Shown here piece by piece: positions 5,870-51,914 of a DNA stretch of 64,000 nt. The stretch covers positions 1 to 64,000 of IMG/VR virus record IMGVR_UViG_3300012016_000001. One strand, given 5' to 3'. Both the position numbers and the translations under genes were made by a program. Numbering within the stretch: position 1 is the stretch's first letter; each line of letters starts with the position of its first letter. Below the pieces are notes generated by a model that did no database searches, was not told where the DNA came from, and was given only the letters and a program-made list of their open reading frames with translations. The DNA comes from a virus (taxonomy: Duplodnaviria > Heunggongvirae > Uroviricota > Caudoviricetes).

Positions 5870-5874
5870 CCTAT

Positions 5875-7112: not shown

Positions 7113-7116
7113 ATAT

Positions 7117-22365: not shown

Positions 22366-22513
22366 AATATACTCGATTAGATAGGGATTCTGAAGGAGTA
22401 CATTATAAGTATCTCGATAGGTCTTGTAAGCAATGCATACGCTATCCATGTTTTGAAGGTATAGAGAATTGTAAGTCTGACTTTGCCAAATACGGTTGTA
22501 AAGATTATAAGGA

Positions 22514-22819
22514 ATGACTACTATTCTTGCTATATTAGAGGACAAGCTCGACGAAGGTATGGGCTATACCACCTATATATTTAGAAATCTAGAAGAAAAT
22601 AAATGGAATCTAAAATATAAGATGGTAACACGATGCCCTAACTGGGACCATCGTGCAATTAATATAGGCGAGGAAGGGTTTTTAACTTATCAGGACTGCA
22701 AGGCAGGTGAGACTACTTGGTATGATGGAAAAGATTTCCATTATTATAAAACCACTATGTCTCAATTCATGAAATTTATTGCTAGACCTAAACAAGTTAG
22801 TACAGATTACGTAATGTGA
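22514..22819 (+). CDS. hypothetical protein
   Basis: 101-aa ORF. Confidence 0.4.
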   Translation: MTTILAILEDKLDEGMGYTTYIFRNLEENKWNLKYKMVTRCPNWDHRAINIGEEGFLTYQDCKAGETTWYDGKDFHYYKTTMSQFMKFIARPKQVSTDYVM

Positions 22820-22882
22820 GTAAGGACTCACTTAAAAAATAAAGATTATGAAAAATTAAAAAATTGAAAATGTAAGAATTTA

Positions 22883-23773
22883 ATGGGAATTTTAGGTGAC
22901 AAATTGACAGCAGCTAAGGAAGCAAAAAGTAATAACATCAATACTTTCGTTTGGAAAGGTCCTAAGAAAGAGGTTGATGGTAAAGTAGTACAGGAAGAGG
23001 TGATGTTGAAAGACGCCACCGAGGCACAACTGAGAGAGTTCTATGCCCACTGTATGTCAATGTTACATAGCCAAGACAAGGTTAATCCCGGAAGATATAC
23101 ACTTCTTGGTATTATTAAAGAACAAAGAGATTGTTGTAATGCTGAACTTTTCGTGAGATGGCTTGAGAACAAGTATAAGAAAGATAATCCTGTGCGTAAG
23201 GAGTATCATAGATATTTGTATCTTCAGGATTTGCGCACTATCCTTAATAACAATAGGGAACAGTTTGATCTTAGCCATCTAGACCAGTATGCTATTGAGA
23301 CAGTTACGCAGGGAGCTCCAATGGAGTTTCGTGATGTAACTATAGCTAAGGCACAAAGTGCTTGTCTGGACACTCTTGGAGAGTTTAATAAGAAGCATCT
23401 TTCTCTTAACTTTATTACCAAGTTAGGATTGTGGTTTACTCCCGCTGAAATCAAAGACCTTACGGAAAAAGATGAAAACGGAAAGACCAAGGATAGATTA
23501 GCAGTTATTCGTGAACGTCACGGGTTGAAGGCTAGTATTAAGCTTTATATCAATCCAAAGGGACTCAACTATACAGAACTTCGTGCTATGCTTAATTTAA
23601 AGAGCAAGAGTCGTAAGTATTCTGACCTCACTACAGACCAGCTTGTTACTTTACGTGACAAGGTGTTGTTCCGTTTTGAGGAAGAGGTTGATTTCCACAT
23701 CCAGCAATGGGAAGAGCGTATCGAACAGCTCAAGAAAGTTGCTGAAATGAAAGGAATAAATTTGGATGAATAG
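22883..23773 (+). CDS. hypothetical protein
   Basis: 296-aa ORF. No motif recognised. Confidence 0.5.
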   Translation: MGILGDKLTAAKEAKSNNINTFVWKGPKKEVDGKVVQEEVMLKDATEAQLREFYAHCMSMLHSQDKVNPGRYTLLGIIKEQRDCCNAELFVRWLENKYKKDNPVRKEYHRYLYLQDLRTILNNNREQFDLSHLDQYAIETVTQGAPMEFRDVTIAKAQSACLDTLGEFNKKHLSLNFITKLGLWFTPAEIKDLTEKDENGKTKDRLAVIRERHGLKASIKLYINPKGLNYTELRAMLNLKSKSRKYSDLTTDQLVTLRDKVLFRFEEEVDFHIQQWEERIEQLKKVAEMKGINLDE

Positions 23774-23842: not shown

Positions 23843-25132
23843 ATGCGGAGTGGGACAGATGATTTGTTTGTAATAGCTGATAGAACAGCACGACAAGAAG
23901 AATGTAGAAGAAAATGGATACAACATAAATGTGTTGGAACTATAGTTGCAGCAACTGGCTTTGGTAAAACCAGAGTTGGAATGAACTGCATAGAAACTAT
24001 AGTAAAGCATTATCCTAACTTCCGTTGTTTAGTAGTAGTTCCTACAGACACACTACAGAAACAATGGAAGAGTCAACTAGATGAAAAAGGTTTAGGTCTT
24101 AACTGTGATGTATTAGTAATAAACACAGCTGTAAAAGAGAAAAGGCAATATCATTTAGTTGTTCTGGATGAAGTACATAGATATGCTAGTGATGTATTTT
24201 CTCAAATATTTAAGCAAGTGGGATTTAAATACATTTTAGGTTTAACTGCAACCTTTGAAAGACTAGATGGAAAGGAAATATTACTATCCAAACATTGTCC
24301 TGTAATAGATTCTATTACTTTGCAGGATGCTATAATGAATGGATGGGTATCTCCTTTTACAGAGTATGAGGTGCTTTTACAAGTAGATAATATAGAAGAA
24401 TATGAACTCCTTAATAAGGAATTCACTGAACACTTTGAATTCTTCAATTTTGATTTTAATTTAGCTATGCTCATGGTTGGTAAAGATGGATGGAAGAATC
24501 GACAGGCGTATCGTGATAAAATATGCCCTAAAGATGCTTCAGCCTCAGACAAAAAATTCCTTTTGTCTAATATAACATATCACGCAATGGGATTTATGAG
24601 GACCATACAAGCCAGAAAGAAATTTATAAATGAGCATCCTAAAAAGATTGAAATTGCTAATAAGATTATTGAAGCAAGAATGGATAAGAAAATAGTTACT
24701 TTTTCAAAGAAAGTATCTATGGCTGAACAGATAAAATATGGTGAAGTATATACAGGAAAAACTTCTAAGAAAAGGAGTGCTACAGTACTTGAAGACTTCA
24801 ACCAATATGCTACAGGAGTACTCAATACTTGTGAAAAAGTAAATGAAGGACTTGATGTACATGGTTTATCTGTCGCTATCATCCTAGGACTAGATTCGGC
24901 ACACCTTAAGGCTATTCAAAGAGTAGGAAGAGTAATTAGACATGAAGCCGGAAAGAAAGCGGAAATATTTAATCTTATCATTGACAAGACTGTTGAAACA
25001 AAGTGGTTTAGTACTTCCCATCCCGAAGGGAGTTATAAAGTCATAGATGAACAAGGACTAGAAAAAGTGTTAAGAGGAGAAGATCCTGGAGAATATGTCA
25101 GACCAGCAACTAAATTCGTATTTAGGTTCTAA
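23843..25132 (+). CDS. superfamily-2 (DEAD/DEAH-like) helicase
   Basis: Walker A VAATGFGKT, motif II VVLDEVH, motif III LGLTAT, motif VI QRVGRVIRH. Confidence 0.75.
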   Translation: MRSGTDDLFVIADRTARQEECRRKWIQHKCVGTIVAATGFGKTRVGMNCIETIVKHYPNFRCLVVVPTDTLQKQWKSQLDEKGLGLNCDVLVINTAVKEKRQYHLVVLDEVHRYASDVFSQIFKQVGFKYILGLTATFERLDGKEILLSKHCPVIDSITLQDAIMNGWVSPFTEYEVLLQVDNIEEYELLNKEFTEHFEFFNFDFNLAMLMVGKDGWKNRQAYRDKICPKDASASDKKFLLSNITYHAMGFMRTIQARKKFINEHPKKIEIANKIIEARMDKKIVTFSKKVSMAEQIKYGEVYTGKTSKKRSATVLEDFNQYATGVLNTCEKVNEGLDVHGLSVAIILGLDSAHLKAIQRVGRVIRHEAGKKAEIFNLIIDKTVETKWFSTSHPEGSYKVIDEQGLEKVLRGEDPGEYVRPATKFVFRF

Positions 25133-25534
25133 TTTTTGGAAAATAGTTTCAGAAGTCTCTATCATGTTAGCCATAGGAGGCAAATGGTTTTGGAGAGTAG
25201 AACCTAGAGATGGTGCATTAGAATTTTCAGATAAATATTTTATAAGTGCAGCAGATGCAGAACAAGATTTAATAACTTTTCTAAAAAATAAGGTAGTATG
25301 AAAGGTTCGGAAATGGTGGAATTGCTTATTCTTGAGCAAATAGTATCAACATATCAAAGTGCACAATTTAAGGGTTTATATGACAAAATGTATGATATGG
25401 AAAAGTTATTAGCTAGATACAATGAGCTATCCATGCTCTTTATGAAACCCTATGTAAAGAATTCCGACTCGGGAGAGTAATACATCTTTTACAGTAAGAG
25501 ATTAGAACTTCAAAAATCTTAATCTTGAACTGTT

Positions 25535-26152
25535 TTGAATAAATATAACTTAAACATTGATGAGGAGATAGCTATGCTAGAGAAGTATCAGCTAACTCCT
25601 AATGAACTTTTTGTAGTTAGATTGATACTGGTTACCAAAGAAGGTTATCCAGAAAATTATCTCTTTAAGTTTCTTCAAATTAATGATTGTAAGGAAGGTT
25701 TTAGACCAACTTTAGTATCTCTTCAGAACAAAGGAGTAATTCTAAAGAGTTATAAGATTCCTGATAAAGGACAATCTTTTGACCCAGCTGCTATACCTTT
25801 TAGTAAGAACTTTGAAACTGCTTTATATAGGTCAGCTTTTGATATGGGTCAAGAACTCTACGAAGCATATCCAATGTTTGCAGAGATACAAGGTGCTACA
25901 GTTTCTATAAGAGGAATATCTAAAAAGTTTAATACTCTTGAAGATGCTTTTCGTTATTATGGAAAACAAATTAGATGGAATCAAGATACGCACAAGCATA
26001 TTCTTGAACTTCTAGATTGGGCACAAAACAATACTTCTTTCATTAACTTCTCTCTTGCTACATTTTTAGTAGATAGGAAATGGGAAGAGATAGAAGCTTT
26101 GAAGAATGGAGATATTACCAATGTAAACTATAACTCTATGCGCTCCATATGA
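25535..26152 (+). CDS. hypothetical protein
   Basis: 205-aa ORF. Its stop overlaps the helicase exon-1 start (ATGA). Confidence 0.5.
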   Translation: MNKYNLNIDEEIAMLEKYQLTPNELFVVRLILVTKEGYPENYLFKFLQINDCKEGFRPTLVSLQNKGVILKSYKIPDKGQSFDPAAIPFSKNFETALYRSAFDMGQELYEAYPMFAEIQGATVSIRGISKKFNTLEDAFRYYGKQIRWNQDTHKHILELLDWAQNNTSFINFSLATFLVDRKWEEIEALKNGDITNVNYNSMRSI

Positions 26153-26307: not shown

Positions 26308-27551
26308 AATTTCTTAAGGACTGGTTTTGATGATTCATATTTTCTATATTAGTTATAATAAAATTATAACAATATGGAAATTAATGAAAAAATTGAAACT
26401 GGAGTCAAAATGTACCTGAATGGTGATGGCACATTAACACAATTACAGAGTATACTTGGAATTAGTAAAGATTTAATAGTAGCTAGATTAAAGGAATTAG
26501 GATATACAATTAAAAGAGGCTATAAACTATCTACAGTAATAGGGTTAAAGGCTGCTACTGAAGAATATTTAGCTAATTATAATAATAATCCTAGTTTGAC
26601 TCAAATAGCTGCTAAACATGGAATAAAAAGACAAACTCTTTCTTCACACGTTAAAGAATTAGGTTATGAAGTTATTAATCATCAAGATAGATTGAAATTT
26701 GATAACACTATATTTGATAGCATTGATACAGAAGAAAAGGCTTATTGGTTAGGATTTATATTTGCAGATGGATATGTAAGTGATAATAATGATTTTGAAG
26801 TATCTTTAAGTATTAAAGATTTTACTCACTTAAATTTATTGCATTTATTTATGAAGACTGAAAAGCCTGTCGGATTTAATGAGACTAGATGTAGACTATG
26901 TGTGAGAGATACTCACTTAGTAAATACTCTTAAGTCTTATGGTTGTATACCAAGAAAATCCTTAGTCTTAGAATTTCCAGAAGAAAAAATCTTTAAAGAT
27001 ATTAAACTTATAAGACATTTTATAAGAGGATTTGTTGATGGGGATGGATGCATTACTTACATCAATAAGGAACATACAAAGCCTCAACTCTCTATTTTAG
27101 GAACAGAGCAATTTCTAAATAAACTTCAGGAGTATTTACCTATTGATTTTATACATCAATTAGGATATAATAATAAATCTAAGAGTTTAGTAACTAGAGT
27201 TTTATCCTTTAATGGAAGTACTGCTTACAATGTTTGTAAGTTTCTATATCAAAATTCTAAAGTGTACCTAGATAGAAAATATGAGAAATTTTTAGAAATT
27301 TGCCGTTCAGAGGAGGAATCTTCTGAATTATTACTGGGCAAAAACGGTGAAGGCTGTGATGCTCCCGCCGTGGTAAATTCAGAAATTGCGAAAGGTTCTG
27401 AATCACCGTACAGCGTAGAGAGTGAATAAATATAATCTCTCCAAGAGTGCCTGGCACCCCAACTGAAATAAGTGGGTGAAAACGTACGCGGGACTTAAGC
27501 AAATAAGAAGCTTAAGAAACTAAGATAAAAAGCTTAGTGGTAACAAAATCG
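26299..27551 (+). mobile_element. putative group I intron (1253 nt) carrying a LAGLIDADG homing endonuclease gene, inserted in the helicase Walker A codons
   Basis: The upstream exon ends in T (26298) and the intervening sequence ends in G (27551). Joining GGT-AGT-GGT | AAG-ACT-ACC restores GSGKTT. The endonuclease ORF is flanked by about 75 nt and about 120 nt of non-coding sequence. Confidence 0.55.
26374..27429 (+). CDS. LAGLIDADG homing endonuclease (double-motif) with N-terminal HTH repeats
   Basis: Two LAGLIDADG motifs: LGFIFADGYVS and IRGFVDGDGCI. It has its own start and is flanked by split helicase exons. Confidence 0.85.
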   Translation: MEINEKIETGVKMYLNGDGTLTQLQSILGISKDLIVARLKELGYTIKRGYKLSTVIGLKAATEEYLANYNNNPSLTQIAAKHGIKRQTLSSHVKELGYEVINHQDRLKFDNTIFDSIDTEEKAYWLGFIFADGYVSDNNDFEVSLSIKDFTHLNLLHLFMKTEKPVGFNETRCRLCVRDTHLVNTLKSYGCIPRKSLVLEFPEEKIFKDIKLIRHFIRGFVDGDGCITYINKEHTKPQLSILGTEQFLNKLQEYLPIDFIHQLGYNNKSKSLVTRVLSFNGSTAYNVCKFLYQNSKVYLDRKYEKFLEICRSEEESSELLLGKNGEGCDAPAVVNSEIAKGSESPYSVESE

Positions 27552-28490
27552 AAGACTACCTTTGCCTTATATTCCTTTATATATAGGCCTTTAGTCGAAA
27601 ATTTAGACAATGACGACTTTCGAGTCATATACTATTCATTAGAGATGTCTGCTGATATGTTGTTCTTAAAACTATTATGCATGCATATATGGGATGAATA
27701 TCATATTGAAGTATCTCCTAAAGAATTAATGTCTAGAAAGAAAAACTATATTCTTGATGAAGACCTATATAAAATAGTGCTAGAATGTCAACCTTGGCTA
27801 ACTAAAGTAGAACAGAAAATTACTGTCTATGATAGAGCATTAAATGCACAAGTTCTCTATGCTAATTTACATAGTGAATTAGAAAAAGAAGGAGAATTTA
27901 TCAATACTGATAAGCGTATCCTTTTTAAAGCAAAGAATCCAGATAAAATCATTCTTGTATGTATGGACCATATTGGTCTAGTTCGTCCAGGACAAGGATC
28001 TACTCTTAAAAATGAGATAGATTTATGTAGTAAGTATCTCTTAACCTTTAGAAACATATGTGGTATTAGTCCACTTGTTCTAATGCAAATCAATAGAGAT
28101 TCTACTTCTACTGATAGACGAAAACTAGATATGATTGACCTCAAGTTGAGTGATATCAAAGATAGTGGTAATCCATCTCAGGATGCTGAAGTTATTCTAG
28201 GTATTCTTTCTCCACATAGAGAGCAACTAAATAAGTACAGAAAATATGATATTACTCAACTAGAGGACAAGTTTAGAAGTATTTCTATTCTTAAATCTAG
28301 GTATGGTGAATCTGAAATACAAATTGGAAGTGCATTTTATGGTAAGGCTGGATTATTTAAGGAATTACCAAAGGGTGAGCAGATAACTTGTTATGACCCT
28401 TATATGGACGTTAGTTATATGTTGTCAGATGAAATTACACAAAATGAAAGAATAGATGAAAACGTAGTCAATTTTAATTTTACGATGTAA
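27552..28490 (+). CDS. DnaB-family helicase, exon 2
   Basis: KTTFALYSFIY ... YYSLEMSADML (DnaB H1a SLEMS motif), followed by Walker B-like and arginine-finger regions. The track ORF begins at a GTG at 27537, five codons into the putative intron. Confidence 0.7.
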   Translation, partial: KTTFALYSFIYRPLVENLDNDDFRVIYYSLEMSADMLFLKLLCMHIWDEYHIEVSPKELMSRKKNYILDEDLYKIVLECQPWLTKVEQKITVYDRALNAQVLYANLHSELEKEGEFINTDKRILFKAKNPDKIILVCMDHIGLVRPGQGSTLKNEIDLCSKYLLTFRNICGISPLVLMQINRDSTSTDRRKLDMIDLKLSDIKDSGNPSQDAEVILGILSPHREQLNKYRKYDITQLEDKFRSISILKSRYGESEIQIGSAFYGKAGLFKELPKGEQITCYDPYMDVSYMLSDEITQNERIDENVVNFNFTM

Positions 28491-33124: not shown

Positions 33125-34194
33125 TAGACGTATATAGTGCAGTCAAATTAAAGCCCCTAACTGATTCCATCATTATAAAGGATATTTCTGATGCAGAATA
33201 TTTCTCCAAATCTTATAGCGATTATATCAGTAATTCTAGATTAAAACTTATCAATCCAGATGAAAAAGGCACTCCAAAGAAATTCTTTGAAGGATTAAAT
33301 AATAATAAGATATATTCTGATGCTCTTATATTCGGTAGCGCTGTACATGAACTTACATTACAGCCTACCGAATTTGTTTTATCTGATATAGATAGACCTA
33401 CAGCAAAAGCTGGATTCATGGCTGACTATATATATGACAACTACATAGGACCCTGCGGAGATAATGTGGGAGAAGTAATAGCAGCTCTTGAGGATTCTGT
33501 ATTTATAGAGGCTTCTGATGAAGTTGACTATTATAAAGGAAAAATGAATGAAGATAAGATTAGTGCACTAAGAGAAAAATGTGAACTATATTGGGTTAAT
33601 AGAGCACTTTTTGAAGAAGACTATACGGGCCCAACTCCAATATATCTCCCATCTAAAATGAGAGAGCAGTTAAATTCTGTTCTCGAATCCTTTAATAAAA
33701 ACAAGAGATTTAAAGAATTATTACATCCTACTGGTCTATTAGAAGATCCTATATCTATGAATGAGACCACTATCTTAATGGACATGGAATATACAGTAAC
33801 ACTACCTGAAGGTCAACAGGAAGGAATACTACATCTAAAGTCCAAGTTAGATAATTTTACTATAGACAATGAAAATAACACTATTACTGTAAATGATGTT
33901 AAGACTACTGGAAAGTATATTACTGAGTTTGCTAGTAGTGCTTTTAATTTCTTTCATTATTATAGAGAGTTAGGAATGTATACTTGGTTGCTTAGACATG
34001 CAGCTGCTAAATATTATAACATATTTAACCCTATTATTAAGAGTAATTGCTTAGTAATAGAAACTTTCCCAGGATATTTTACTAAGACTTATGAACTTAC
34101 TAAAATGGACTTGGCAAGAGGTATGCAAGAATTTGGTTGGTTGTTACGTCAAGTAGCTTATTTCAAGGCTAAATATGACTTACAAGGAGCTTGA
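33121..34194 (+). CDS. hypothetical protein
   Basis: 357-aa ORF. Confidence 0.5.
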   Translation: MIDVYSAVKLKPLTDSIIIKDISDAEYFSKSYSDYISNSRLKLINPDEKGTPKKFFEGLNNNKIYSDALIFGSAVHELTLQPTEFVLSDIDRPTAKAGFMADYIYDNYIGPCGDNVGEVIAALEDSVFIEASDEVDYYKGKMNEDKISALREKCELYWVNRALFEEDYTGPTPIYLPSKMREQLNSVLESFNKNKRFKELLHPTGLLEDPISMNETTILMDMEYTVTLPEGQQEGILHLKSKLDNFTIDNENNTITVNDVKTTGKYITEFASSAFNFFHYYRELGMYTWLLRHAAAKYYNIFNPIIKSNCLVIETFPGYFTKTYELTKMDLARGMQEFGWLLRQVAYFKAKYDLQGA

Positions 34195-34501
34195 AGCAAT
34201 TTATAATAAATATTTTAGCTTAGGAAACTTAAATATTAATATAAACAATAAGTTTGCACTTATATCTTTGATATGTTATATAACTACTTCGATGCAAAAA
34301 AAGAAACCTGATGTTACTTATTATCAAGTAGTATATAAGATATGCGATACACTCGGATTTGAGGAAGACTTTATAAAAGGATTAGCAATAATGTGTGAAA
34401 ATTTTGGATATGGTTGTAAAGACTTTCCTACATTCAATATTGCTCCAAAAGATATGGTTCAAACTTGTCGTGACATATTAAAAACTTATATGCCATTTTG
34501 A
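34175..34501 (+). CDS. hypothetical protein
   Basis: 108-aa ORF. Confidence 0.4.
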   Translation: MTYKELEAIYNKYFSLGNLNININNKFALISLICYITTSMQKKKPDVTYYQVVYKICDTLGFEEDFIKGLAIMCENFGYGCKDFPTFNIAPKDMVQTCRDILKTYMPF

Positions 34502-34724
34502 CCGAAAACGAATTGTTAAAAATTGTAAAATTTTGGCAATTCATTTGAGATTAGAACTAGAAGTTAGTAGATTTGTTTCACCAACCTTCGGGAAGGAGAA
34601 AGTTCAAAGATGAACTTAATTTTAGATTAATTAACATTCATTTAGTTGTCCGTTAGGATGAGCAAATGTATATTTGTTTAGATGAAGATGATTAATACGA
34701 ATTAATGTTAAAACTAATTGAATT

Positions 34725-35273
34725 ATGGAAACAAAAGTAATTAATTTCAAGAAACTAGAAGTTACAGGTGCTACAAAAGAAGAGGCTATAGCAAAGGCTC
34801 CATTCCAGATTATAGGTGATGCTACTCAGGCTTTCAAGAATTGGAAGAAGAAACAGACTGATGGTATTACAGATGCAATGATTAAGGCTTTCTGTCTTGA
34901 GTATATCGAGAAGAAGTCTAAGAGTGCCGCTGGTATTGGATATTCGATTACCGTCGAAGCTGCTGTTGCTGACACTCGCGAGCGTCCTTACAAGATCAAT
35001 GATGTCAAGAATGAGAAGGGTAAGAGAAAGTACGTTACTACATATGAGCTTGTTGATGATGTGACAGGTGAGGTAGTAGGTATGACTCAAGAGACAAAGG
35101 CTGTTGCTAAAGAGCAGGCAAAGGAACTTTACAAGAAAGGCTTTAAGCATAATATTACTTGTAAGTACACCAAGCAAGTTCTAGATGGCGAACCCATTGC
35201 ATTCACTGCCGAGTATACTCCCTCAAAGAGTTCTAAGGTAGGTACATATATGGTCTTTGGCGTCGAGGCCTAA
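34725..35273 (+). CDS. hypothetical protein, probably highly expressed
   Basis: 182-aa ORF preceded by a 220-nt AT-rich intergenic region and followed by the strongest terminator in the window. Confidence 0.5.
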   Translation: METKVINFKKLEVTGATKEEAIAKAPFQIIGDATQAFKNWKKKQTDGITDAMIKAFCLEYIEKKSKSAAGIGYSITVEAAVADTRERPYKINDVKNEKGKRKYVTTYELVDDVTGEVVGMTQETKAVAKEQAKELYKKGFKHNITCKYTKQVLDGEPIAFTAEYTPSKSSKVGTYMVFGVEA

Positions 35274-37773: not shown

Positions 37774-39573
37774 GTGTTAAATATGGAAATAATGAAAGTA
37801 ATTAAACGTGATGGAAAATTGGAGGAATTTGATGCCTCTAAAATAAAGGCAGCTATTAGGGCTGCCTTTAAAAGTGCAGATGAAGAATTTGACGAAGAAT
37901 TAATAGATGATATATTCAATGATCTTCCTTTATGGGATGAAATGACTATTGATTCTATAGAAGATCAAATAATTGAAGTTCTGAATGACTTTAACTATGA
38001 AAATGTAGCTAGAGAGTATCTATTCTATAAATGGGAACACCAGAAAGCTCGTAATTTAGCAGAGAGCAAGAGGTCCTTTATAGAAAGATATAAAGAAGCT
38101 ACTAATACTGCAAATGCTACTATAGATGACAATAGTAATGTCGGGAATAAGAATATAGGTATACTTAATGCAGAAGGCCACAAGACTGAGAATATTTTAG
38201 TTAGTAGGGCAATGATAAAGAGTAAACTTAAAAGCTTGTTTCTTGACTTTGATGCTAAACAGTATGTAAGAGACTTGAAAAGTCATATAATTTATAAGCA
38301 TGACGAGTCTAGTTTTATGGGTGCTATTGCTCCTTACTGCTGTTCTATATCTATGTATCCTTTCCTCATAGGAGGAATAAAGGGTATAGGTGGTCTTTCT
38401 GCAGCTCCTAAGAATCTTGATAGTTATTGTGGAATGTATGTTAATCTTATATTTGCAATAGCTGGGCAGTTTGCTGGAGCAGTTGCTACTCCTGAATTTT
38501 TATTGTATTTTGACTATTTTGCACGTAAACAATGGGGAGATTTATATTATCAAAAACCTAATGTTCAGACTACCAGTGATTATGTACTACGTAAAATGAC
38601 AATACAAAAGGAAATACATCAATATTTTCAACAAGTTATTTATAGTATTAATCAACCAGCAGCTGCAAGAGGTATGCAATCTGCATTTGTGAACTTTGCA
38701 TATTTTGATAAACCATTTTTTGAAGCAATGTTTGGAAATTTTGTATTTCCAGATATGTCTACTCCTAAGTGGGAATCTCTAAATTGGTTACAAAAAGAGT
38801 TTATGCGATGGTTTAATTCAGAAAGATGTAAATGTATTCTAACTTTCCCTGTAGAATCTTTTGCTCTTATTTATAAAGATGGTAAGTTCTTAGATGAGGA
38901 AAATGCAAAGTTTGTTGCAGAAGAATACTCTAATGGTCATAGCTTTTTTACATATATTTCTGATACTGCTGATAGTTTGTCTTCTTGTTGCCGCCTCAAA
39001 AACAAAGTGGATACAAAAGAATTTAACTTTACCAATGGAAACATGGGTGTGGAGACGGGCTCAAAGAGTGTTATAACTCTTAATTTAAATAGGATTATAC
39101 AAGATTGGTGTAAGTTTATAGGAGGAGTTCCGAAAGTGGGAAATCAATATGACAGTTTACGTCTTTATTTAAGAAATATTCTTCAAAGAGTATATAAATA
39201 TCATATAGCATATAATGAATGCTTATGGGATATGTATGATGCTGGATTACTTCCAGTTTATTCCAATGGATTTATATCTCTTAACAAGCAATATCTAACT
39301 ATCGGACTTAATGGACTTAACCAGGCAGCAGAATTCTTAGGCATTGAGTGTAATGTAAATCAAGAATATCAAGACTTCTGCCAAGCTGTATTCTCTATCA
39401 TAAAGGAAGCTAATTCTGAAGCTAATGGAAAATACTTTGGACACAAAGTTACATTTAATACTGAATGTGTCCCTAGACTCAGTGGGGACGTTAAACCTCT
39501 ATTGATTGACTTGGAAGCCCCTAGAGGGCAACAGGGCGCAAGCAGAAGCGTTTGTAAGTTTCGTGCAGCGTGA
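37774..39573 (+). CDS. nrdD: anaerobic ribonucleoside-triphosphate reductase NrdD (class III), exon 1 (the ORF runs on into the intron until a stop)
   Basis: N-terminal ATP-cone VIKRDGKLEEFDASKIKAAIRAAF, NrdD core and the FNTEC motif. The ORF lacks the C-terminal Zn-ribbon and glycyl-radical motifs, which are found in the ORF at 40502. Confidence 0.85.
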   Translation: MLNMEIMKVIKRDGKLEEFDASKIKAAIRAAFKSADEEFDEELIDDIFNDLPLWDEMTIDSIEDQIIEVLNDFNYENVAREYLFYKWEHQKARNLAESKRSFIERYKEATNTANATIDDNSNVGNKNIGILNAEGHKTENILVSRAMIKSKLKSLFLDFDAKQYVRDLKSHIIYKHDESSFMGAIAPYCCSISMYPFLIGGIKGIGGLSAAPKNLDSYCGMYVNLIFAIAGQFAGAVATPEFLLYFDYFARKQWGDLYYQKPNVQTTSDYVLRKMTIQKEIHQYFQQVIYSINQPAAARGMQSAFVNFAYFDKPFFEAMFGNFVFPDMSTPKWESLNWLQKEFMRWFNSERCKCILTFPVESFALIYKDGKFLDEENAKFVAEEYSNGHSFFTYISDTADSLSSCCRLKNKVDTKEFNFTNGNMGVETGSKSVITLNLNRIIQDWCKFIGGVPKVGNQYDSLRLYLRNILQRVYKYHIAYNECLWDMYDAGLLPVYSNGFISLNKQYLTIGLNGLNQAAEFLGIECNVNQEYQDFCQAVFSIIKEANSEANGKYFGHKVTFNTECVPRLSGDVKPLLIDLEAPRGQQGASRSVCKFRAA

Positions 39574-40501
39574 ACGACTAAGTATAGAGGCTCCTTAAGT
39601 TACTGCAGTGATGCAGTTCTTTTGGGAGATGCGATAGTCTGAACTCTATGGTAACATAGAGAGGAAATTTGAAGAAATTTCCCATCCAAACTTGTTTTCT
39701 CATAAAACACTTATTAAGTTTGTTCTATGTAATAAATGAAAATGTTATTTAAAATTTTTATGAAAATGGAACAAGAAGTACGTAAGTGTTGTATTTGTGG
39801 AGCGTCAGTAGGAAATGGAACTGACAAAGTTTACAAATTTTCAGATGGAAATATGTATTGCAAGAAGCACTATCTTCAGATGTATAGACATGGACATATA
39901 ATAGAAAGAACTATATATGATCCAAATGAATATATAGAATATGAAGATTATGCAGAATGTATATGTTATGATAAATCTGGAAATGAGAAAGGAAGAGTAA
40001 AAATAGATCTAGATAAAGTTTCTTTAATAAAAAAGCATAAAGTGTACATAAGAAAACAAAATGACAAAATTTATGCAGCGATTTCCATTGATAATAAAAA
40101 GGTAATGCTCCATAGATATTTAATGGAAATAATTAATGAAGAATATTCTATTAATAAAGTTGTTGATCATATAAATGGAGATTCTTTAGATAATAGGATT
40201 TCTAATTTAAGAATTTGTACACATAAACAAAATATGCAAAATATAAGAAAGAAAAATAAAATAGTAGGAGTATCTAAAAGTCCTAATAAAAATAATAGAT
40301 GGATTGCAAGAATAATGCATAATTATAAAACTATTAATTTAGGATATTTTGATACTTATGCAGAGGCCACTTTAGCTCGTATACAAAAAGAAAAGGAAAT
40401 CTGTGGAGAGTATGGGCCTAACAAGGATTTATTTTACGTTTTGGATCTCCCTTCTCCATTGGAAGAATTACAAAAATTTGTTCCAGAAGGGGTGTAACAG
40501 A
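39574..40501 (+). mobile_element. intervening sequence in nrdD (putative group I intron) encoding an HNH-AP2 homing endonuclease; exact splice sites not determined
   Basis: NrdD is split into two ORFs with an endonuclease gene between them. The non-coding flank 39574-39735 contains stable hairpins such as GGAAATTT-GAAG-AAATTTCC. This parallels the T4 nrdD group I intron. Confidence 0.5.
39736..40497 (+). CDS. HNH homing endonuclease with AP2 DNA-binding domain
   Basis: HNH motif HRYLMEII ... VDHINGDSLDNRISNLRICTHKQN. AP2-like motif GVSKSPNKNNRWIARIMHNYKTINLGYFDTYAEATLARIQ. Confidence 0.85.
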   Translation: MKMLFKIFMKMEQEVRKCCICGASVGNGTDKVYKFSDGNMYCKKHYLQMYRHGHIIERTIYDPNEYIEYEDYAECICYDKSGNEKGRVKIDLDKVSLIKKHKVYIRKQNDKIYAAISIDNKKVMLHRYLMEIINEEYSINKVVDHINGDSLDNRISNLRICTHKQNMQNIRKKNKIVGVSKSPNKNNRWIARIMHNYKTINLGYFDTYAEATLARIQKEKEICGEYGPNKDLFYVLDLPSPLEELQKFVPEGV

Positions 40502-40978
40502 ATGGCTGAAAGTTTAGCTGCTAAGAATTATAATTGGGATAAAGAAGATGGATATTGGGTACCTGAAGATACTAATCTATACGCATCTTATATATTTAAG
40601 CCTAATGATAAGTCTGTAAGTATTCTAGATAAAATTACATTACATGGTTCTAATTATATAGGAGATTATTTAGACGGAGGAAGTGCTGCACATATTAATC
40701 TAGCAGACCATCCTTCTTTCTTCCAAGCCTGGAAAATTCTAAATTTTGCAGCAGAACAAGGATGTCAGTATTTTACTTTTAATGTTCCTAATTCTGAGTG
40801 TCAAGATTGTGGATGGATAGGTAAAAAACCAGTAAAAGTATGTCCTAGATGTGGTTCTACGCATATAGATTACTATGATAGAATTATTGGTTATTTAACT
40901 AAAATACGTAATTGGGCAGATTGCCGTAAAATTGAACAAAAAACTAGAGTTTATGAAAAATTCGAAGATAGAGCCTGA
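40502..40978 (+). CDS. nrdD: NrdD exon 2 (C-terminal Zn ribbon and glycyl-radical domain)
   Basis: CQDCGW ... CPRCGS zinc ribbon and the glycyl-radical motif RIIGYLTKI. The open frame extends upstream to 40403, so the true splice acceptor lies within 40403-40560. Confidence 0.75.
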   Translation: MAESLAAKNYNWDKEDGYWVPEDTNLYASYIFKPNDKSVSILDKITLHGSNYIGDYLDGGSAAHINLADHPSFFQAWKILNFAAEQGCQYFTFNVPNSECQDCGWIGKKPVKVCPRCGSTHIDYYDRIIGYLTKIRNWADCRKIEQKTRVYEKFEDRA

Positions 40979-42375: not shown

Positions 42376-42743
42376 TTACTGGTATTGAAAATCTTCCACG
42401 TACAAAACAGAAGGCTGTTTTAGAATTTATTTCTTCAGAATTTGATCTTGATGAGGCTATAAAAATAGATGAAGAAGATGATGATATTATCTTAATTAAT
42501 GATAACAGATATTTTGTTATTCATCCTTATGAAGAAAATGAGTTAATAGATGATGTTAACGATAATAGATTTGAAGCTGCTTTTGAAAATCTATCTGAAG
42601 AACAAAGAAGTTATGTAGACAAAGATAAATGGATAGAGGACAAAGGTTTACAAGATTTTATAGACTACCTTAAATATGAACTAGATGAAATGCCATCTAA
42701 AGATTACTTAGTATTTGGTGGTTATCATTTCTATGAACTTTAA
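42372..42743 (+). CDS. hypothetical acidic protein
   Basis: 123-aa ORF, strongly acidic (DEEDDDIIL ...). Confidence 0.4.
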   Translation: MITGIENLPRTKQKAVLEFISSEFDLDEAIKIDEEDDDIILINDNRYFVIHPYEENELIDDVNDNRFEAAFENLSEEQRSYVDKDKWIEDKGLQDFIDYLKYELDEMPSKDYLVFGGYHFYEL

Positions 42744-43204
42744 TGAAGTTTACTGAATATGAAGTCGTTTTAAGGGAAATTCCTGACGAAATAACTTTAG
42801 CTATTAACATAAGTAATTGTCCTTTCCATTGTGAGGGTTGTCATAGCCCTCACTTATGGGAGGATGTAGGAATGAAACTAACTGCCCCTCTTTTATATCA
42901 AATGATTAAGAGGAATAATGGTATTACTTGTGTATCATTTATGGGAGGCCCATTTAAAGAAGTTAGTGTATGGTCGGACTGGATTCACAAAGTGTTTCCT
43001 GATTTAAAAACTGCATGGTATACTGGAGATTCTACTCTTCCCATATTTGAAAATTCATTAGATTATATAAAAGTAGGAAAATATATAAAAGACTTAGGTC
43101 CACTTAATAGTCCTACTACTAATCAAAGACTATATAAGATAGTTAAACTAGAAAGTGGATTTAAAGGAGTTATGAATATTACTCCACGTTTATGGAAAAA
43201 TTAG
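42743..43204 (+). CDS. nrdG: anaerobic RNR activating protein NrdG (radical SAM)
   Basis: NCPFHCEGCHSPHLW (Cx3Cx2C with a GCH.P context, as in T4 and E. coli NrdG). About 150 aa, located 1.8 kb downstream of nrdD. Confidence 0.7.
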   Translation: MKFTEYEVVLREIPDEITLAINISNCPFHCEGCHSPHLWEDVGMKLTAPLLYQMIKRNNGITCVSFMGGPFKEVSVWSDWIHKVFPDLKTAWYTGDSTLPIFENSLDYIKVGKYIKDLGPLNSPTTNQRLYKIVKLESGFKGVMNITPRLWKN

Positions 43205-43524
43205 AAATGCGATTAATTAAGCCTCTATATGTAAGTTCAAGATATGGATGGCATGAATTCATTCCATTTACAAATAGATGGGATGGACTTGGCGAAGAAA
43301 AACTTCGTCCTGACCAGCAAGAATTTATGATTCCAGAATCTTATTATAGGATAATAGGAGAAGATTTCACTGCTCCTGAATCTTTAGACTTAGACGGAGG
43401 CCCATTTATATCTATAGGAAGTATAATAGAAGATATATTTTATTCAAAAGATAATAGATACAGAATAGATAAATTTGATTGCCGTGGTAAATATCCAATA
43501 CTTATATGCAGCAAATTGCAGTAA
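43192..43524 (+). CDS. hypothetical protein
   Basis: 110-aa ORF. Confidence 0.4.
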   Translation: MEKLEMRLIKPLYVSSRYGWHEFIPFTNRWDGLGEEKLRPDQQEFMIPESYYRIIGEDFTAPESLDLDGGPFISIGSIIEDIFYSKDNRYRIDKFDCRGKYPILICSKLQ

Positions 43525-43641
43525 TTGACTATACATTAGGATGTATAGATATATATACTATTCCAAGGGAAGAAGATCCTCAAGAATGGTTAGACAAGAA
43601 TAATAAATGGAATCCTAGTAGTTGTGAATGGATAGGACACG

Positions 43642-45072
43642 ATGGTATTTTACCTATTACTATTCATGCTTGATTTTACTAAATTAACTGAAGAACTTAA
43701 GAAACCTAAAAGAGAATTTGAGCTTGGAGAAGAACAACTCCAGGCTCTTTCCCTTATTAAGGACTTTATAAAGAATAGTAAAGATATTGCTTTTTCCTTA
43801 TGTGGTTCTGCAGGAACTGGAAAAACAACGTTGGAAAAAGAAATAATAGATTTTCTAAATGATGAATGGATTGATTATTCATTATGCGCTCCAACACATA
43901 AAGCTGCATTAGTTATGCGTCAAACTACAAAAGAAGATGCTATTACTTTGCATAAGTTATTAGCATTATCTCCTAATGTTGAAATACTTGATTTAGACTT
44001 TAGAGAGTTACAATTTAAAACTTCTAGAGTAGTTAATGCTATAATTCCAAAAAGTGTAGTTATATGTGATGAAGCTTCAATGATTAATGATGATTTATTC
44101 GATCTTCTTATTCAAAAATGTTCAGATAAGAAAGCTAAGATTATATTTTTAAGTGATAGTAAGCAACTTAACCCTGTTAAAAGTAGAAAGTGTTCAAAAG
44201 TATATGATTTACCTAACCAGTTTGAGTTGACTCATATATATAGGCAAGCCCAGGAAAGTGCCCTTACACCGCTTCTAGCAAGGCTCAGAGAGCATAAACT
44301 AGGTCACCTGGACAGTAAGCAAGGTGAGGCAGGAAACCTCATTGTAACCTCTAATATGAAGGAATTTTTAGAGGCAGCTAAAGTGCAATTTTTGGAAGCA
44401 ATTGATACACGAAATATATTGCAAACTAAAATTGCTGCCTATACTAATACGAGAGTATCTCTCTTTAATCAAGCTATTCGTAACTTTTTATGGAATGATG
44501 AAGAGCCCTATCATAAGGGTGAATTTTTAACTTCTTACGAAAATGCTGATTTTGAAGGTACAATGTTCTATAACTCAATGGATTACGTAGTTGCAAATGA
44601 ACCTGAAGAAGTTACTACTGAACTTCCTCACTTCTATGCAAAGGTAAAAGGTTATCTTTTAGATTTATGGGATGCCTATGATAAATACACAAAAGAGTGT
44701 TTTATTCTATCTAAAGATAATCCAGAAATTGTTTTTGAACAATTAGCATCTATCCTTGAAGCGATAAGATTCAAAGCAATTGAATCCAAACAAACTAGTT
44801 CCTTTAAAGCCTCTTTATATTGGAAACAATATTATGAATTACTTCATAGTTTTGTGACTCCTATACCATTGGTTTATGAAGGGAGAGTTGTTAGAAAGAA
44901 GTCTTTTGATTACGGTTATGCTTCTACTTCACATAAGTTACAAGGTTCCACTTATAATACGATATTCGTAGATTTAAGGAATATTAATACTTGTACTGAT
45001 GAAGCTGTTAAAAAACAATTACAATATGTAGCTTTATCTAGGACTAGAACTGATGCTTATGTATTACAATGA
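43642..45072 (+). CDS. Dda/RecD-like superfamily-1 DNA helicase
   Basis: Motif I LCGSAGTGKTT, motif II VICDEASMIN, C-terminal motif TSHKLQGST (as in TVHKSQGSE of RecD/Dda). Confidence 0.75.
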   Translation: MVFYLLLFMLDFTKLTEELKKPKREFELGEEQLQALSLIKDFIKNSKDIAFSLCGSAGTGKTTLEKEIIDFLNDEWIDYSLCAPTHKAALVMRQTTKEDAITLHKLLALSPNVEILDLDFRELQFKTSRVVNAIIPKSVVICDEASMINDDLFDLLIQKCSDKKAKIIFLSDSKQLNPVKSRKCSKVYDLPNQFELTHIYRQAQESALTPLLARLREHKLGHLDSKQGEAGNLIVTSNMKEFLEAAKVQFLEAIDTRNILQTKIAAYTNTRVSLFNQAIRNFLWNDEEPYHKGEFLTSYENADFEGTMFYNSMDYVVANEPEEVTTELPHFYAKVKGYLLDLWDAYDKYTKECFILSKDNPEIVFEQLASILEAIRFKAIESKQTSSFKASLYWKQYYELLHSFVTPIPLVYEGRVVRKKSFDYGYASTSHKLQGSTYNTIFVDLRNINTCTDEAVKKQLQYVALSRTRTDAYVLQ

Positions 45073-45204
45073 TAGCTACTATTAATGTAAGTGAAGACAT
45101 ATTAAAAAGATTTAAAGGTTTTGAAATTCACTCATACTATGATAACTTTAGTATACCTATAGCTTATATAGAAGAAGCTGGACAGATAAAATTCATAATT
45201 TACA

Positions 45205-45495
45205 ATGCCGATTATGATAGAATTAGTGCTTGTATCAAAAAACTTAGAGGATGAACAGAAAGTCTTGTCTAGAGAATCTCCTAGCGGGTATTATTTTTCT
45301 TTTCTTGATCTTGGCTCTAAGTTATGCAGGACTGATGCTTTTGCATTAAAAAGTGAGTGGGGAGCAAGAGAAGACCCGTTTGCCTTAGTAAAAGATAAAG
45401 ATAAAGTACTTAGATGTTTTTATAGCGAAAAAGGTAATAATGTAATAGATGAGGCTTTAGAATTTATAAAATGTTTACAGGAAAGTTATGATTGA
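45205..45495 (+). CDS. hypothetical small protein
   Basis: 96-aa ORF. The overlapping 45069-45254 ORF is an alternative. Confidence 0.3.
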
Positions 45496-47503: not shown

Positions 47504-48708
47504 CATTAGTTACTAGAGACAGTAAAGGTAAAATCAGAGTCGTTGATATATGGACGAATCACGACTCTGATTCCTCTACTATATGTAGAGAGACTTACCA
47601 ATATCTAGGAAAACATACAAGACAACCTGATATTGTAATAGAAGCTGGAAAAGCTGGGCGTGATATTGCAGCACAATGTGAATTACAATTTATGTCTCAG
47701 TTAAAAAGTTATAAAGATAAAGGTTATAAAGAATTAGAAAAAGACATATCTAAGTATACAGAAAAAGAACTAAATGAAATAGTTGGAGATACTATTACTA
47801 ATCAGCATGGTGTACAAAAACCCATGTTAGCTAAGCAAGCTGACAAAGTGTCTCAAAAGGCTATTGATAAAGTTCCTTACTGGTACGCGAGCAGAAAAAT
47901 AGATGGAGTACGCTGTTCTTTCTATTTAGATGGGGATACTATAAGAACATCTAGTAGAGGAGGAGAGGACTACGATTGTGCTTGTATGCACTTTATAAAT
48001 AATGAAAAATTAAAGAAATTCTATGAAAGGCATCCTGGAATAGTCTTAGATGGTGAACTATATAAACACGGACGGAGCCTTCAACAAATCTCAGGCGCTG
48101 CAAGACTTGAAAAGAATGCTGTAGACTGTGACTGGCTAGAATATTATATTTATGACATCGTAGACACTAACAGAACGTTTGAAGAAAGACTTAAAGTGTT
48201 GGCTGCAATTAAATATGAACTTGGACTCGGATTCAATCCAGAAAGAGAATGGAAAGAAGGAGAACTACAGTTCCAAATGGTTCCACAACAAAAGGTGTCT
48301 GGCTTCAAGAATATAAATATACTTCACGATATTTATGTATCAGAAGGATGGGAAGGAGTCGTTATCAGAGACCCATCTAAAGTGTATAGACCTAATGGGC
48401 GTACCAATGATATGATAAAATTTAAGAAGTATAAAGATGCAGAATTTTTAGTTATAGATTATGAACTAGGTCTTAGAGGTACTGAAGATATGACCTTTAC
48501 TTGTACTACTCCTGCTGGACTAGAGTTTAAGGCTAAGCCTTGGGGAGATAGAGCTATTAAAGAGGAATATGTAAAGAACTTTAAAACTAAGTATCAATAT
48601 AAGTTAGCAAAGATTAAGTTTTTCTATTATTCTAACGGAAATAATGAAAAGACTGGAGTTCCACTTCAACCATCACTTATATGTTTCCGTGATAAATCTG
48701 ATATGTAA
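47500..48708 (+). CDS. ATP-dependent DNA ligase
   Basis: Adenylation motif I SRKIDGVR (KxDG), followed by nucleotidyltransferase motifs and an OB-fold region. Confidence 0.85.
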   Translation: MTLVTRDSKGKIRVVDIWTNHDSDSSTICRETYQYLGKHTRQPDIVIEAGKAGRDIAAQCELQFMSQLKSYKDKGYKELEKDISKYTEKELNEIVGDTITNQHGVQKPMLAKQADKVSQKAIDKVPYWYASRKIDGVRCSFYLDGDTIRTSSRGGEDYDCACMHFINNEKLKKFYERHPGIVLDGELYKHGRSLQQISGAARLEKNAVDCDWLEYYIYDIVDTNRTFEERLKVLAAIKYELGLGFNPEREWKEGELQFQMVPQQKVSGFKNINILHDIYVSEGWEGVVIRDPSKVYRPNGRTNDMIKFKKYKDAEFLVIDYELGLRGTEDMTFTCTTPAGLEFKAKPWGDRAIKEEYVKNFKTKYQYKLAKIKFFYYSNGNNEKTGVPLQPSLICFRDKSDM

Positions 48709-48886
48709 TGTTTATAACTATTAGTGATTTTGATGGAAATGTTATAAAGTTAAATAAATCTTTAATAAATAGATTGTTTCCTAATGCCTGTGTAGATATT
48801 AATAGTTATGAAAAAGCTATGGAAACTCTAGGTATTGAATCTTTTGATAAGGTTATAGACGGAAAAATAAAATTACATATTAGAAA

Positions 48887-49162
48887 ATGATTCCTTCTAA
48901 GTTTAAAATTGGAGCACAGTGGTTTACTGTAGAATTTGTAGATGAATTAGATGAAGAATATGGAGAATTTAGCTATACTCCTCCTATTATAAAGATAGCG
49001 AAAACATTAGACGGAGAGGAAATTCCTCAAAACCAGCTAGAAGCAACTTTCTGGCATGAATTTTTTCATGCTTTTCAGTACATGTTTAATTGTGAGACCG
49101 ATGAAACACAAGCTCAATGTTTTTCTAACTTTATGATGGAGTTTTTAGAAACTAGACAATGA
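48887..49162 (+). CDS. hypothetical small protein
   Basis: 91-aa ORF. A 60-aa ORF at 48708-48890 precedes it. Confidence 0.35.
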   Translation: MIPSKFKIGAQWFTVEFVDELDEEYGEFSYTPPIIKIAKTLDGEEIPQNQLEATFWHEFFHAFQYMFNCETDETQAQCFSNFMMEFLETRQ

Positions 49163-50553: not shown

Positions 50554-51395
50554 AACAAATAACGATTAAACAAAGTATTACCAATAGAGATAGGGATTCT
50601 GTTAATCTTTATCTCAAGGATATTGGTAAAGTAAAGCTCTTATCTGCTGAACAAGAAAAAGAAATAGCTCGTAAGGCTAAGGCAGGAGATAAGAGAGCAA
50701 GAGATAGACTTATTGCAGCTAATACTAGATTTGTTATTACAGTAGCTAAACAATATCAAGGACAAGGTCTAGATTTAGAAGATTTAATAAGTGAAGGTAA
50801 TATAGGTCTTATTAAGGCAGCTGATAAATTTGACCCAGATAAAGGATATAAATTTATTTCCTATGCTGTATGGTGGATAAGACAATCTATATTACAAGCA
50901 TTATCAGATAAATCTAGAACTATAAGATTACCTTTAAATCAAGTGGCTATGCTTAATAAAGTAAGAAAAGCTATTTCTGAATTTGCAGGTAAAAATGAAA
51001 GAGACCCTTCAATGAAGGAACTTTCTGAAATTACTGGTATAAATGAATCTAAAATTACTAGTATTCTTAATATGTCAGTACATATGTTATCTGTAGATTC
51101 TCCATTTAAAGATGAAGAAGAAGGTACTCTTATTGATATTATCCCAAATAATAATAGTCCAAAAGCTGATGCAGCACTTATAAAAGCATCTAAAGAGCAT
51201 GACCTTGTTAAGATATTATCTATACTTGGTCCACGTTCTCATGATATAATTCGTATGTACTTTGGACTGGGGGTTAGAGAAATGACTCTAGATGAAATAG
51301 GAAATAAATTTGGAGTTACTAGTGAAAGAATAAGACAGTTAAAGGAAAAAGCGTTAGATGCTATTAAACCAAATGTTCAAAAATATCTAAAGTGA
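50550..51395 (+). CDS. RNA polymerase sigma-70 family sigma factor
   Basis: Region 2 DLISEGNIGLIKAADKFDPDKGYKFISYAVWWIRQSI and region 4 HTH LDEIGNKFGVTSERIRQL. Confidence 0.9.
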   Translation: MKQITIKQSITNRDRDSVNLYLKDIGKVKLLSAEQEKEIARKAKAGDKRARDRLIAANTRFVITVAKQYQGQGLDLEDLISEGNIGLIKAADKFDPDKGYKFISYAVWWIRQSILQALSDKSRTIRLPLNQVAMLNKVRKAISEFAGKNERDPSMKELSEITGINESKITSILNMSVHMLSVDSPFKDEEEGTLIDIIPNNNSPKADAALIKASKEHDLVKILSILGPRSHDIIRMYFGLGVREMTLDEIGNKFGVTSERIRQLKEKALDAIKPNVQKYLK

Positions 51396-51575
51396 GATTC
51401 TTAGTCGAATTTGAAGAAAATATAACTACTCGTAGAATGGTAAGAGCTATAATAGAAGCTGATTCAGAGAAGGATATCAAAGATGAGATATTTGAAGGTA
51501 ACTATGAAGTAGATGATTGTTTTGATTGTTATGATACAGATTGGGAATTCATAAATATAAATAGTATTAAACCTT

Positions 51576-51914
51576 ATGATAAAAACGTGGAAAGTTAAAA
51601 TTTATTGTCCTTACGGAGAGGAAGTTTTTGTTGCTTATGCAGAAGAAAACCCAATAGATAATGAATTAATTTCTTGGGATGAACTGAGGGAGATATATCA
51701 AGAATTATGGGATAGTTATGGATATATAGTAACAGACCATACTGATGCAGATCCAGATGAAGAAGCTTATGAAGAAGAGTGTGAACAACTGTATGAAGAC
51801 TTTATGTGTGATACAGGAGCATCTGCAGAAGAAATGCCTATAGAGAAGATTAAATTATATACATCTAATGGTTCTGACCCAGAAATAATTTACGACGAAC
51901 GAAATGAAAAGTAA
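51576..51914 (+). CDS. hypothetical acidic protein
   Basis: 112-aa ORF. A 68-aa ORF at 51392-51598 precedes it. Confidence 0.35.
   Translation: MIKTWKVKIYCPYGEEVFVAYAEENPIDNELISWDELREIYQELWDSYGYIVTDHTDADPDEEAYEEECEQLYEDFMCDTGASAEEMPIEKIKLYTSNGSDPEIIYDERNEK

Follow-up and report, generated by a model that had tools for sequence, protein, structure and literature searches.

Very probable mobile group I intron with an HNH endonuclease gene in nrdD of a tailed phage from IMG/VR

The nrdD exons and their junction

The virus record IMGVR_UViG_3300012016_000001 (Caudoviricetes) encodes a class III ribonucleotide reductase (RNR) gene, nrdD, in which the segment 39475-40504 is very probably a mobile group I intron. 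All coordinates are positions in the analysed window, the 64,000-nt stretch comprising positions 1 to 64,000 of this record, and all features described below lie on the + strand. The evidence consists of the continuity of the exons, a covarying secondary structure, membership in a wider intron family, presence or absence at the same site among relatives, and a conserved HNH motif in the protein encoded within the insertion. A preliminary description, made from the sequence alone, had proposed that nrdD is split by an intervening sequence with an HNH gene. Each of these parts lies at the expected position, and only one junction makes NrdD continuous again.

Three successive open reading frames (ORFs) of 599, 253 and 191 aa fill the region 37774-40978. 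The 599-aa ORF (37774-39573) encodes the ATP-cone and the N-terminal three quarters of the Pfam NRDD domain. The third ORF (40403-40978) holds the zinc ribbon (CQDCGW...CPRCGS) and the glycyl-radical motif (RIIGYL), as the preliminary description had recognised. The NRDD match (E 1e-50 for the exon 1 part and 4e-27 for the exon 2 part) spans profile positions 7-414 and stops at residue 567 of exon 1 (...NTECVP, nt 39474). It restarts at the first residue of exon 2 (AESLAAKN, nt 40505) and covers positions 415-560 in the last 157 residues of the 191-aa ORF. Since the profile is contiguous (414/415) across 39474/40505, the gene is cleanly interrupted and does not consist of two paralogous fragments. 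Alignment thus sets the exon boundaries at 39474/40505 and the insertion at 39475-40504 (1,030 nt); independent paralog fragments, or a failure of any junction to restore NrdD, had been named as possible refutations and are not what was found. Exon 1 (37774-39474) comprises 567 codons with the ATP-cone and NRDD positions 7-414, its start codon being uncertain (GTG 37774, ATG 37783 or ATG 37792). Exon 2 (40505-40978) comprises 157 codons and a stop; both the zinc ribbon (CQDC...CPRC) and the glycyl-radical motif (RIIGY) are encoded here, along with NRDD positions 415-560. Read-through into the intron accounts for the final 32 codons of the 599-aa ORF, which ends at a stop within the insertion (39571-39573), and for the initial 34 codons of the third ORF. 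The correct gene model is join(37774..39474, 40505..40978), which yields one stop-free NrdD of 724 aa rather than two fragments.

Joining the exons, the end of exon 1 (...AAUGUGUCCCU) onto the start of exon 2 (GCUGAAAGUUUAGC), creates the junction peptide VTFNTECVP/AESLAAKNYNW, which is identical in uninterrupted homologues. The 20-residue version, VTFNTECVPAESLAAKNYNW, is the same in the uninterrupted genes of three related loci (L120, L122 and L171). The motif FNTE(C/Q/L)VP/AESLA is unbroken in ~85 of the 88 related loci, and nrdD of Lak-C1 and of the crAss-like phage cr116_1 is also unbroken at this site (567/568). As the 1701 nt of exon 1 equal 567 codons, the intron is in phase 0, and the junction is unambiguous because the bases flanking each boundary differ. 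The length of the insertion is 3n+1, so that neither an intein nor read-through, nor any other in-frame explanation, is tenable. Neither exon contains a stop or a frameshift, exon 1 is 82% identical to an intact homologue, and all features of NrdD are present: the NRDD domain, the ATP-cone, the zinc ribbon, the glycyl-radical motif RxxGY and a nearby nrdG candidate. Recoding of TAG or TGA was considered as a cause of the split and dismissed, since the standard code 11 gives intact exons.

Anatomy of the ribozyme

The ribozyme corresponds to the first ~250 nt of the insertion. At its 5' boundary, the exon end GUCCCU (39469-39474) pairs with GGGGAC (39484-39489) to form P1, placing a U39474·G39484 wobble at the 5' splice site. 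The same internal guide sequence, UCAGU-GGGGAC (39479-39489), pairs through UCAGU (39479-39483) with GCUGA of exon 2 (40505-40509), giving a P10 of 5 bp that adjoins P1. The guide sequence is identical in the same-site intron of a relative, L180. In 66 of the 84 intron family members, P1 likewise has 5 bp or more and ends in U·G, and P10 is weaker in many relatives (2-4 bp).

The catalytic core (39490-39644), supported by a covariance model (R1, below) and by covariation, consists of P3 (39496-39502/39584-39590, CCUCUAU/AUAGAGG), P4 (39510-39513/39532-39535, CUUG/CAGG), P5 (39517-39520/39526-39529, GCCC/GGGC), P6 (39536-39539/39568-39571, GCGC/GCGU) with a variable P6a, P7 (39576-39580/39635-39639, GACUA/UAGUC) and P8 (39591-39594/39625-39628, with an inner stem 39602-39607/39612-39617 and a GUGA loop). 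P7 crosses P3 to form the group I pseudoknot. Only 3 nt separate P7 from P3', P2 is lacking, and P8 is expanded by 27 nt relative to the family consensus. Two segments, GUGAACGACUAAG and GAUGCGAUAGUC, are what we take to be R-like and S-like elements, given their resemblance to the classical group I consensus elements. The peripheral 3' domain (39644-39722) comprises P9 (39644-39650/39655-39661, GUAA loop), P9.1 (39663-39670/39675-39682, GAAG loop) and P9.2 (39687-39693/39716-39722), as seen in minimum-free-energy folds and in homologous hairpins of ORF-less relatives. Such folding by itself recovers P1 and P4-P9.2 (z = -3.2). The intron closes with the 3'-terminal element GUAACAGAAUG (40494-40504), which ends in the terminal guanosine G40504 (omega G) and is the same in the ORF-less members and in the same-site introns of L180, L201 and L202. 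Its last triplet (40502-40504) is an AUG in frame with exon 2, directly before it.

Three other pairings were considered. An alternative P4, in which CUUG pairs with CAAG (39539-39542), was ruled out, since L180 has CUCG/CGAG yet keeps CAAG. Pairing of the 3' GUAAC with GUUA (39490-39493), as in a mini-intron fold, is unsupported: the 5' partner varies across the family and GUAAC is invariant. Inspection of J7/9 and the terminal ACAGAAUG revealed no covariation of the P9.0 type.

A family of related introns supported by covariation

BLAST searches with the intron returned matches, short yet strong, within split genes of two unrelated phages. In Roseobacter phage CRP-118 (OR420741; L002:2497-2720) an ORF-less member splits a ribonucleotide reductase gene, and in MW202674 (L003:~2490-2690) another splits a P22-like coat gene. 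Each of these genes is deposited as two coding sequences, and no intron is annotated. Desulfovibrio phage 7757 carries a further copy. A search pattern derived from the conserved core, GACTTGGAAGCC N5-30 CAGGGCGCAAGC, matched 109 IMG/VR contigs, so that the family is present on at least 109 phage contigs. Most of the matched copies are ORF-less insertions of ~200-260 nt ending in ...AAAGUAACAGAAUG. In three IMG/VR members (L014, L030, L048) a long insertion is placed in the loop of P8 and not downstream of P9.2; these insertions look ORF-bearing, with a Shine-Dalgarno-like AGGAG followed by ATG. Thus, the family tolerates cargo at no fewer than two positions.

Covariation was assessed on 46 non-redundant members, with partners slid by 1-3 columns and 500 shuffles as controls. 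Standard pairs occupy 97.4-97.8% of cells versus 35-51% with the partners slid, and none of the 500 shuffles reached the observed pairing or covariation score. All seven P3 pairs and all four P8 pairs change on both sides, and 15 pairs show double changes in total. For the terminal pair of P7, 34 sequences have A-U and 12 have G-C, and none has a broken pair. Compensatory changes are also found in P4, P5 and P7 of the same-site introns of L180 and L202: CUUG/CAGG becomes CUCG/CGAG in P4 (a single change, L180), GCCC/GGGC becomes UCCC/GGGA in P5, and GACUA/UAGUC becomes GAGUA/UACUC in P7. Anatomy and covariation together support the identification of the insertion as a group I intron.

The covariance model R1 was built here from the intron core and includes the window copy in its training set. 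It detects a single copy in the window (108.7 bits, E 1.8e-21, for this training-set sequence) and no further one with filters off. Sequences outside the training set also score well: 97.9 bits in L200, 102.2 in L201, 68.8 in L202, 95.6 in L171, ~80 in L184, L185, L186 and L189, and 77 in Lak-B1. The family is missed by Rfam and is unannotated in GenBank phage records. With R1, or with the pattern GACTTGGAAGCC...CAGGGCGCAAGC, many genes annotated as split in viral metagenomes could be corrected. Its hosts include marine Roseobacter podoviruses, Desulfovibrio phages and gut mega- and jumbo phages. There is a slim chance that the ribozyme represents a compact group I subclass outside current curated models, spread across very different phages and occupying two nrdD sites 16 codons apart. 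The traits of the subclass would be the lack of P2 and of P7.1/7.2, the presence of P9-P9.1-P9.2 and the invariant GUAACAGAAUG terminus.

The HNH endonuclease

The 253-aa ORF (39736-40497) encodes a putative homing endonuclease and sits between P9.2 and the conserved 3' end of the intron. Its stop codon, UAA (40495-40497), falls inside the conserved GUAAC of GUAACAGAAUG. The gene had been described as flanked by structured non-coding RNA. This holds for the 5' side (39475-39735); on the 3' side, 7 nt remain after the stop. In the protein, an N-terminal Cys4 zinc finger is followed by a beta-rich region, then by the HNH motif (D144-H145...N166-N169) and an AP2-like domain (~178-223), with helices at the C-terminus.

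Assignment of the protein to the HNH type is solid. Pfam HNH_3 matches with E 8.6e-11 (41.8 bits against a gathering score of 24.8) and phrog_99 with E 1e-40. The protein has 279 detected homologues, and residues D144, H145, N147, N157, N166 and N169 are invariant among 62 of them. A profile of these 62 homologues matches I-HmuI (PDB 1U3E) over the HNH region with E 0.0015, and AP2/ERF domains over residues ~158-198 (WRI1, E 0.009; TEM1, E 0.06). In the AlphaFold model (pLDDT 88.8), the best Foldseek matches are the AP2 domain of TEM1 (probability 1.0, E 0.03), I-HmuI (probability 0.87) and, for the Cys4 module, GATA-type zinc fingers; Foldseek with the whole model returned nothing at E <= 0.001, so these are ranked agreements at the level of domains. 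Pfam AP2 (PF00847) gave no match at E <= 10 on the protein and none on its isolated C-terminal 90 aa. It reaches 25 bits in two homologues (P0019 and P0023), under the gathering score of 33.3. Thus, of the HNH-AP2 enzyme proposed in the preliminary description, the HNH part stands and an AP2 domain is probable, as concordant weak signals suggest. No paralogue of the HNH gene was found in the window.

Same-site relatives and mobility

Introns of the same family, with a homologous HNH gene, occupy the identical codon boundary in L180, L201 and L202, divergent phages in which exon identity to the window NrdD spans 36-66%. The NrdD exons of L180 are ~65% identical to those of the window and its HNH protein 55%. 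In L201 the exons are 38-50% and the HNH protein 71% identical, and in L202 the exons are 36-54% identical. L200 is a near-identical locus assembled from an independent sample. The intron is polymorphic at this site, being carried by the window, L180, L200, L201 and L202 and missing from ~85 other loci. The closest relatives, L120-L122 (80-82% identity), are without it. So is L171 (89% identity) at 567/568, although another member of the family is present in it at 583/585, 16 codons further on. Homing into a conserved target, accompanied by occasional gain and loss, would predict such a distribution, although a pattern of this kind is no proof of endonuclease activity.

The gene is a general insertion hotspot in this phage group, with many sites in use and up to seven insertions in Lak-B1. 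In IMG/VR relatives, insertions lie near residues 190, 583/585 and 625/626. In the Lak phages of Prevotella (L001, L113-L116), nrdD is broken by three to seven insertions, following residues ~259, 304, 360, ~403, ~428, 583 and ~695 in the numbering of the window NrdD. None of them is at 567/568, only that of Lak-B1 at 583/585 belongs to the intron family of the window, and they are without annotation in the GenBank records. A further observation concerns L202 (L202:1-2779, ENA ERZ16268250), where the NrdD homologue contains Intein_splicing domains (1,285-aa product) in addition to the same-site intron and HNH gene. Inteins and introns therefore coexist within a single nrdD gene.

Proposed mechanism

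After transcription, the first ~250 nt of the intron would fold into the ribozyme core. P1 would present U39474·G39484, and an exogenous guanosine would attack after U39474. P10 (UCAGU with GCUGA) and the terminal G40504 would then position exon 2, and the exons would be ligated. The resulting mRNA would encode the 724-aa NrdD, in which the catalytic barrel is reunited with the zinc ribbon and the glycyl-radical loop. The HNH gene sits between P9.2 and the conserved 3' end, a position that would tolerate an insertion. In a mixed infection, its product may nick or cut an intron-less nrdD near GUCCCU/GCUGA, and recombinational repair would copy the intron into the cut allele (homing). A more speculative idea of low probability is that the in-frame AUG or UUG at the intron end could let unspliced RNA yield the C-terminal fragment with the glycyl radical by separate translation, as a 'spare part'.

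Alternative explanations

Several points weigh against a group I intron that splices and homes. We infer splicing, endonuclease activity and the target at this locus from sequence and structure. The preliminary description had suggested a covariance search for intron cores; Rfam gave no group I or group II match, either in the whole window at the gathering score or in 39300-40800 at E <= 10. RF00028 (Intron_gpI) matched neither the insertion nor two ORF-less relatives even at E <= 10, so that the group I assignment rests on manual structural reading and covariation. RF00028 is incomplete for several group I subgroups. No covarying partner was found for the 3' element GUAACAGAAUG. P4 and P6 are almost invariant among the 46 aligned members and are thus weakly tested, partly since the search pattern fixed both. 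Finally, the AUG at 40502-40504 shares the reading frame of exon 2, so that a C-terminal fragment could be translated separately.

This last point belongs to the view that nrdD is an unspliced split gene, divided by a free-standing HNH homing endonuclease, with two polypeptides assembling into an active enzyme. In Aeromonas phage Aeh1, nrdA is reportedly split by mobE in this manner. The exon 1 frame, which runs on for 32 codons to the stop at 39571-39573, and the in-frame AUG right before exon 2 agree with such an arrangement, and splicing of the window locus is inferred, not observed. However, a conserved and structured RNA with compensatory changes occupies the 250 nt before the HNH gene, which a mere intergenic spacer would not lead one to expect, and the same RNA forms ORF-less insertions of ~200 nt in unrelated genes. 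Its guide sequence pairs with both exon ends (P1 and P10), and the terminal AUG belongs to the RNA consensus of the family, being UUG in L180, L201 and L202. We therefore regard an unspliced split gene as very unlikely. The evidence for splicing, being indirect, would also allow a decayed intron that no longer splices, leaving nrdD a pseudogene in this phage, and the 27-nt expansion of P8 relative to the family consensus could be read in the same way. Yet all core helices and invariant core nucleotides are intact (R1 108.7 bits, for a sequence in the training set), as are the exons, with neither stops nor frameshifts and with 82% identity of exon 1 to an intact homologue, and the HNH ORF with its catalytic residues. 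Moreover, nrdG is retained and a near-identical copy of the locus is present in a second sample (L200), which makes decay highly improbable.

Another kind of intervening element, or an assembly chimera, has next to no probability. Although inteins do occur in nrdD of the related phage L202, the window insertion is 1,030 nt long (3n+1), contains stops when read in the exon frame and is devoid of intein domains. A group II intron is contradicted by the lack of a reverse transcriptase or maturase and of any Rfam group II match, and a chimera by the same architecture having been assembled independently in L180, L200, L201 and L202. Frame and domain analysis effectively refutes the intein, group II and artefact readings, and the mobile group I intron is the best explanation of the insertion.

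Genomic neighbourhood

The preliminary description had also mentioned a downstream nrdG, and a candidate was found at 42743-43204 (Pfam Fer4_12, E 3e-5; phrog_626 'anaerobic ribonucleotide reductase small subunit', E 1e-8). Separated from the end of nrdD by 1.8 kb and four unrelated ORFs, this candidate is a functional partner located outside the intron. An anaerobic host, proposed from nrdD and nrdG, is a reasonable assumption. Both genes are part of a nucleotide-metabolism block with DUF3307, a metallophosphatase, an SF1 helicase and a dUTPase.

The phage had further been thought intron-rich, the nrdD insertion being counted as the second endonuclease-bearing intervening sequence in the window. 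One member of the nrdD intron family was found there with R1, and a second endonuclease-bearing interruption is plausible. A 351-aa ORF (26374-27429) contains two LAGLIDADG motifs (WLGFIFADGYV and IRGFVDGDGCI; Pfam LAGLIDADG_3, E 6e-6). It is located between an ORF at 25535-26152 and, just downstream, a DnaB_C helicase ORF (27537-28490) that starts at profile position 32. The LAGLIDADG ORF may be another such interruption, in this case of the replicative helicase gene; Rfam and R1 detected no intron in this region (26374-28490).

Elsewhere in the window, 22 tRNA genes lie in the block 2739-12489, together with a tmRNA gene (10705-11066). One tRNA (7229-7302) has the anticodon CUA (amber suppressor, labelled 'Pyl' by ARAGORN), and TAG stops just 5 of the 73 long + strand ORFs. 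The CUA tRNA and the scarcity of TAG stops hint that TAG is recoded in other parts of the genome, as it is in Lak and crAss-like phages. Many stretches of 400-530 nt between + strand genes are without ORFs of at least 120 aa and recall the extensive intergenic regions described in Lak phages (22365-22883, 25132-25535, 34194-34725, 43204-43642, 45072-45488, 48708-49159, 51395-51904, 58009-58493 and 59458-59920).

Comparison with known systems

Fragmentation of nrdD by group I introns has already been published for T4 and for gut jumbo phages, and the case described here is ordinary in that respect. It adds a documented homing site in nrdD, at the conserved FNTE.VP/AESLA motif, and an HNH enzyme that probably has an AP2 module, and leaves the view of how these elements function unchanged.

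Within its own family, the window intron shares the core sequence and structure and the GUAACAGAAUG terminus with ORF-less members (those in the CRP-118 RNR gene, the MW202674 coat gene and nrdD of L171 and Lak-B1 at 583/585). The latter have no endonuclease gene; in L014, L030 and L048 an apparent ORF is placed in P8 instead. All of these are found at other target sites. The closest solved HNH relative of the endonuclease is I-HmuI, which is likewise encoded by a phage intron, that of the DNA polymerase gene of Bacillus phage SPO1 (PDB 1U3E). The window protein differs from I-HmuI in its Cys4 zinc finger at the N-terminus, whose fold is GATA-like, and in an AP2-like domain. Homing endonucleases of the HNH-AP2 type were reportedly proposed by Magnani et al. 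in 2004 to be ancestral to the AP2/ERF domains of plants. The window protein resembles them in that the HNH motif is followed by a module of ~50 aa, with three strands and a helix, matching AP2/ERF, but its AP2 signal is absent in Pfam and below threshold in its homologues.

The same phenomenon, in the same ecological setting, is known from the gut 'Jug' jumbo phages, in which 2,513 group I introns of ~206 nt were reported (PMC12880540). Their nrdD is fragmented in 95 of 104 genomes, many HNH genes accompany the introns, and metatranscriptome reads confirm that the nrdD introns are spliced (PMC12880540, 2026). CrAss-like phages share the trait of nrdD fragmentation (PMC12880540). The reported GC content of Jug phages is 27-30%, versus 33.5% in the window, and no GenBank phage record is close to the window. 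Thus, the window probably represents a lineage other than the Jug phages.

The parallel with the nrdD (sunY) intron of T4, drawn in the preliminary description, is valid as an analogy. Both are group I introns of nearly the same length (1,033 nt in T4 and 1,030 nt here) in the same gene, and both have a homing-endonuclease ORF of ~255 aa (I-TevII in T4) located 3' of the core, far from the 3' splice site. The T4 introns belong to subgroup IA2 and contain P7.1/P7.2. The T4 intron is inserted at codon ~180, whereas the window site corresponds to STP/AEN of T4 (~codon 445), and I-TevII is annotated as a GIY-YIG enzyme, in contrast to the HNH enzyme of the window. R1 gives no match to the T4 nrdD intron (locus L119). 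Homology of the two introns was therefore rejected on the grounds of the other site and the missing R1 match. Given the different site, ribozyme and enzyme type, the T4 and window introns are analogous and represent independent invasions of one gene.

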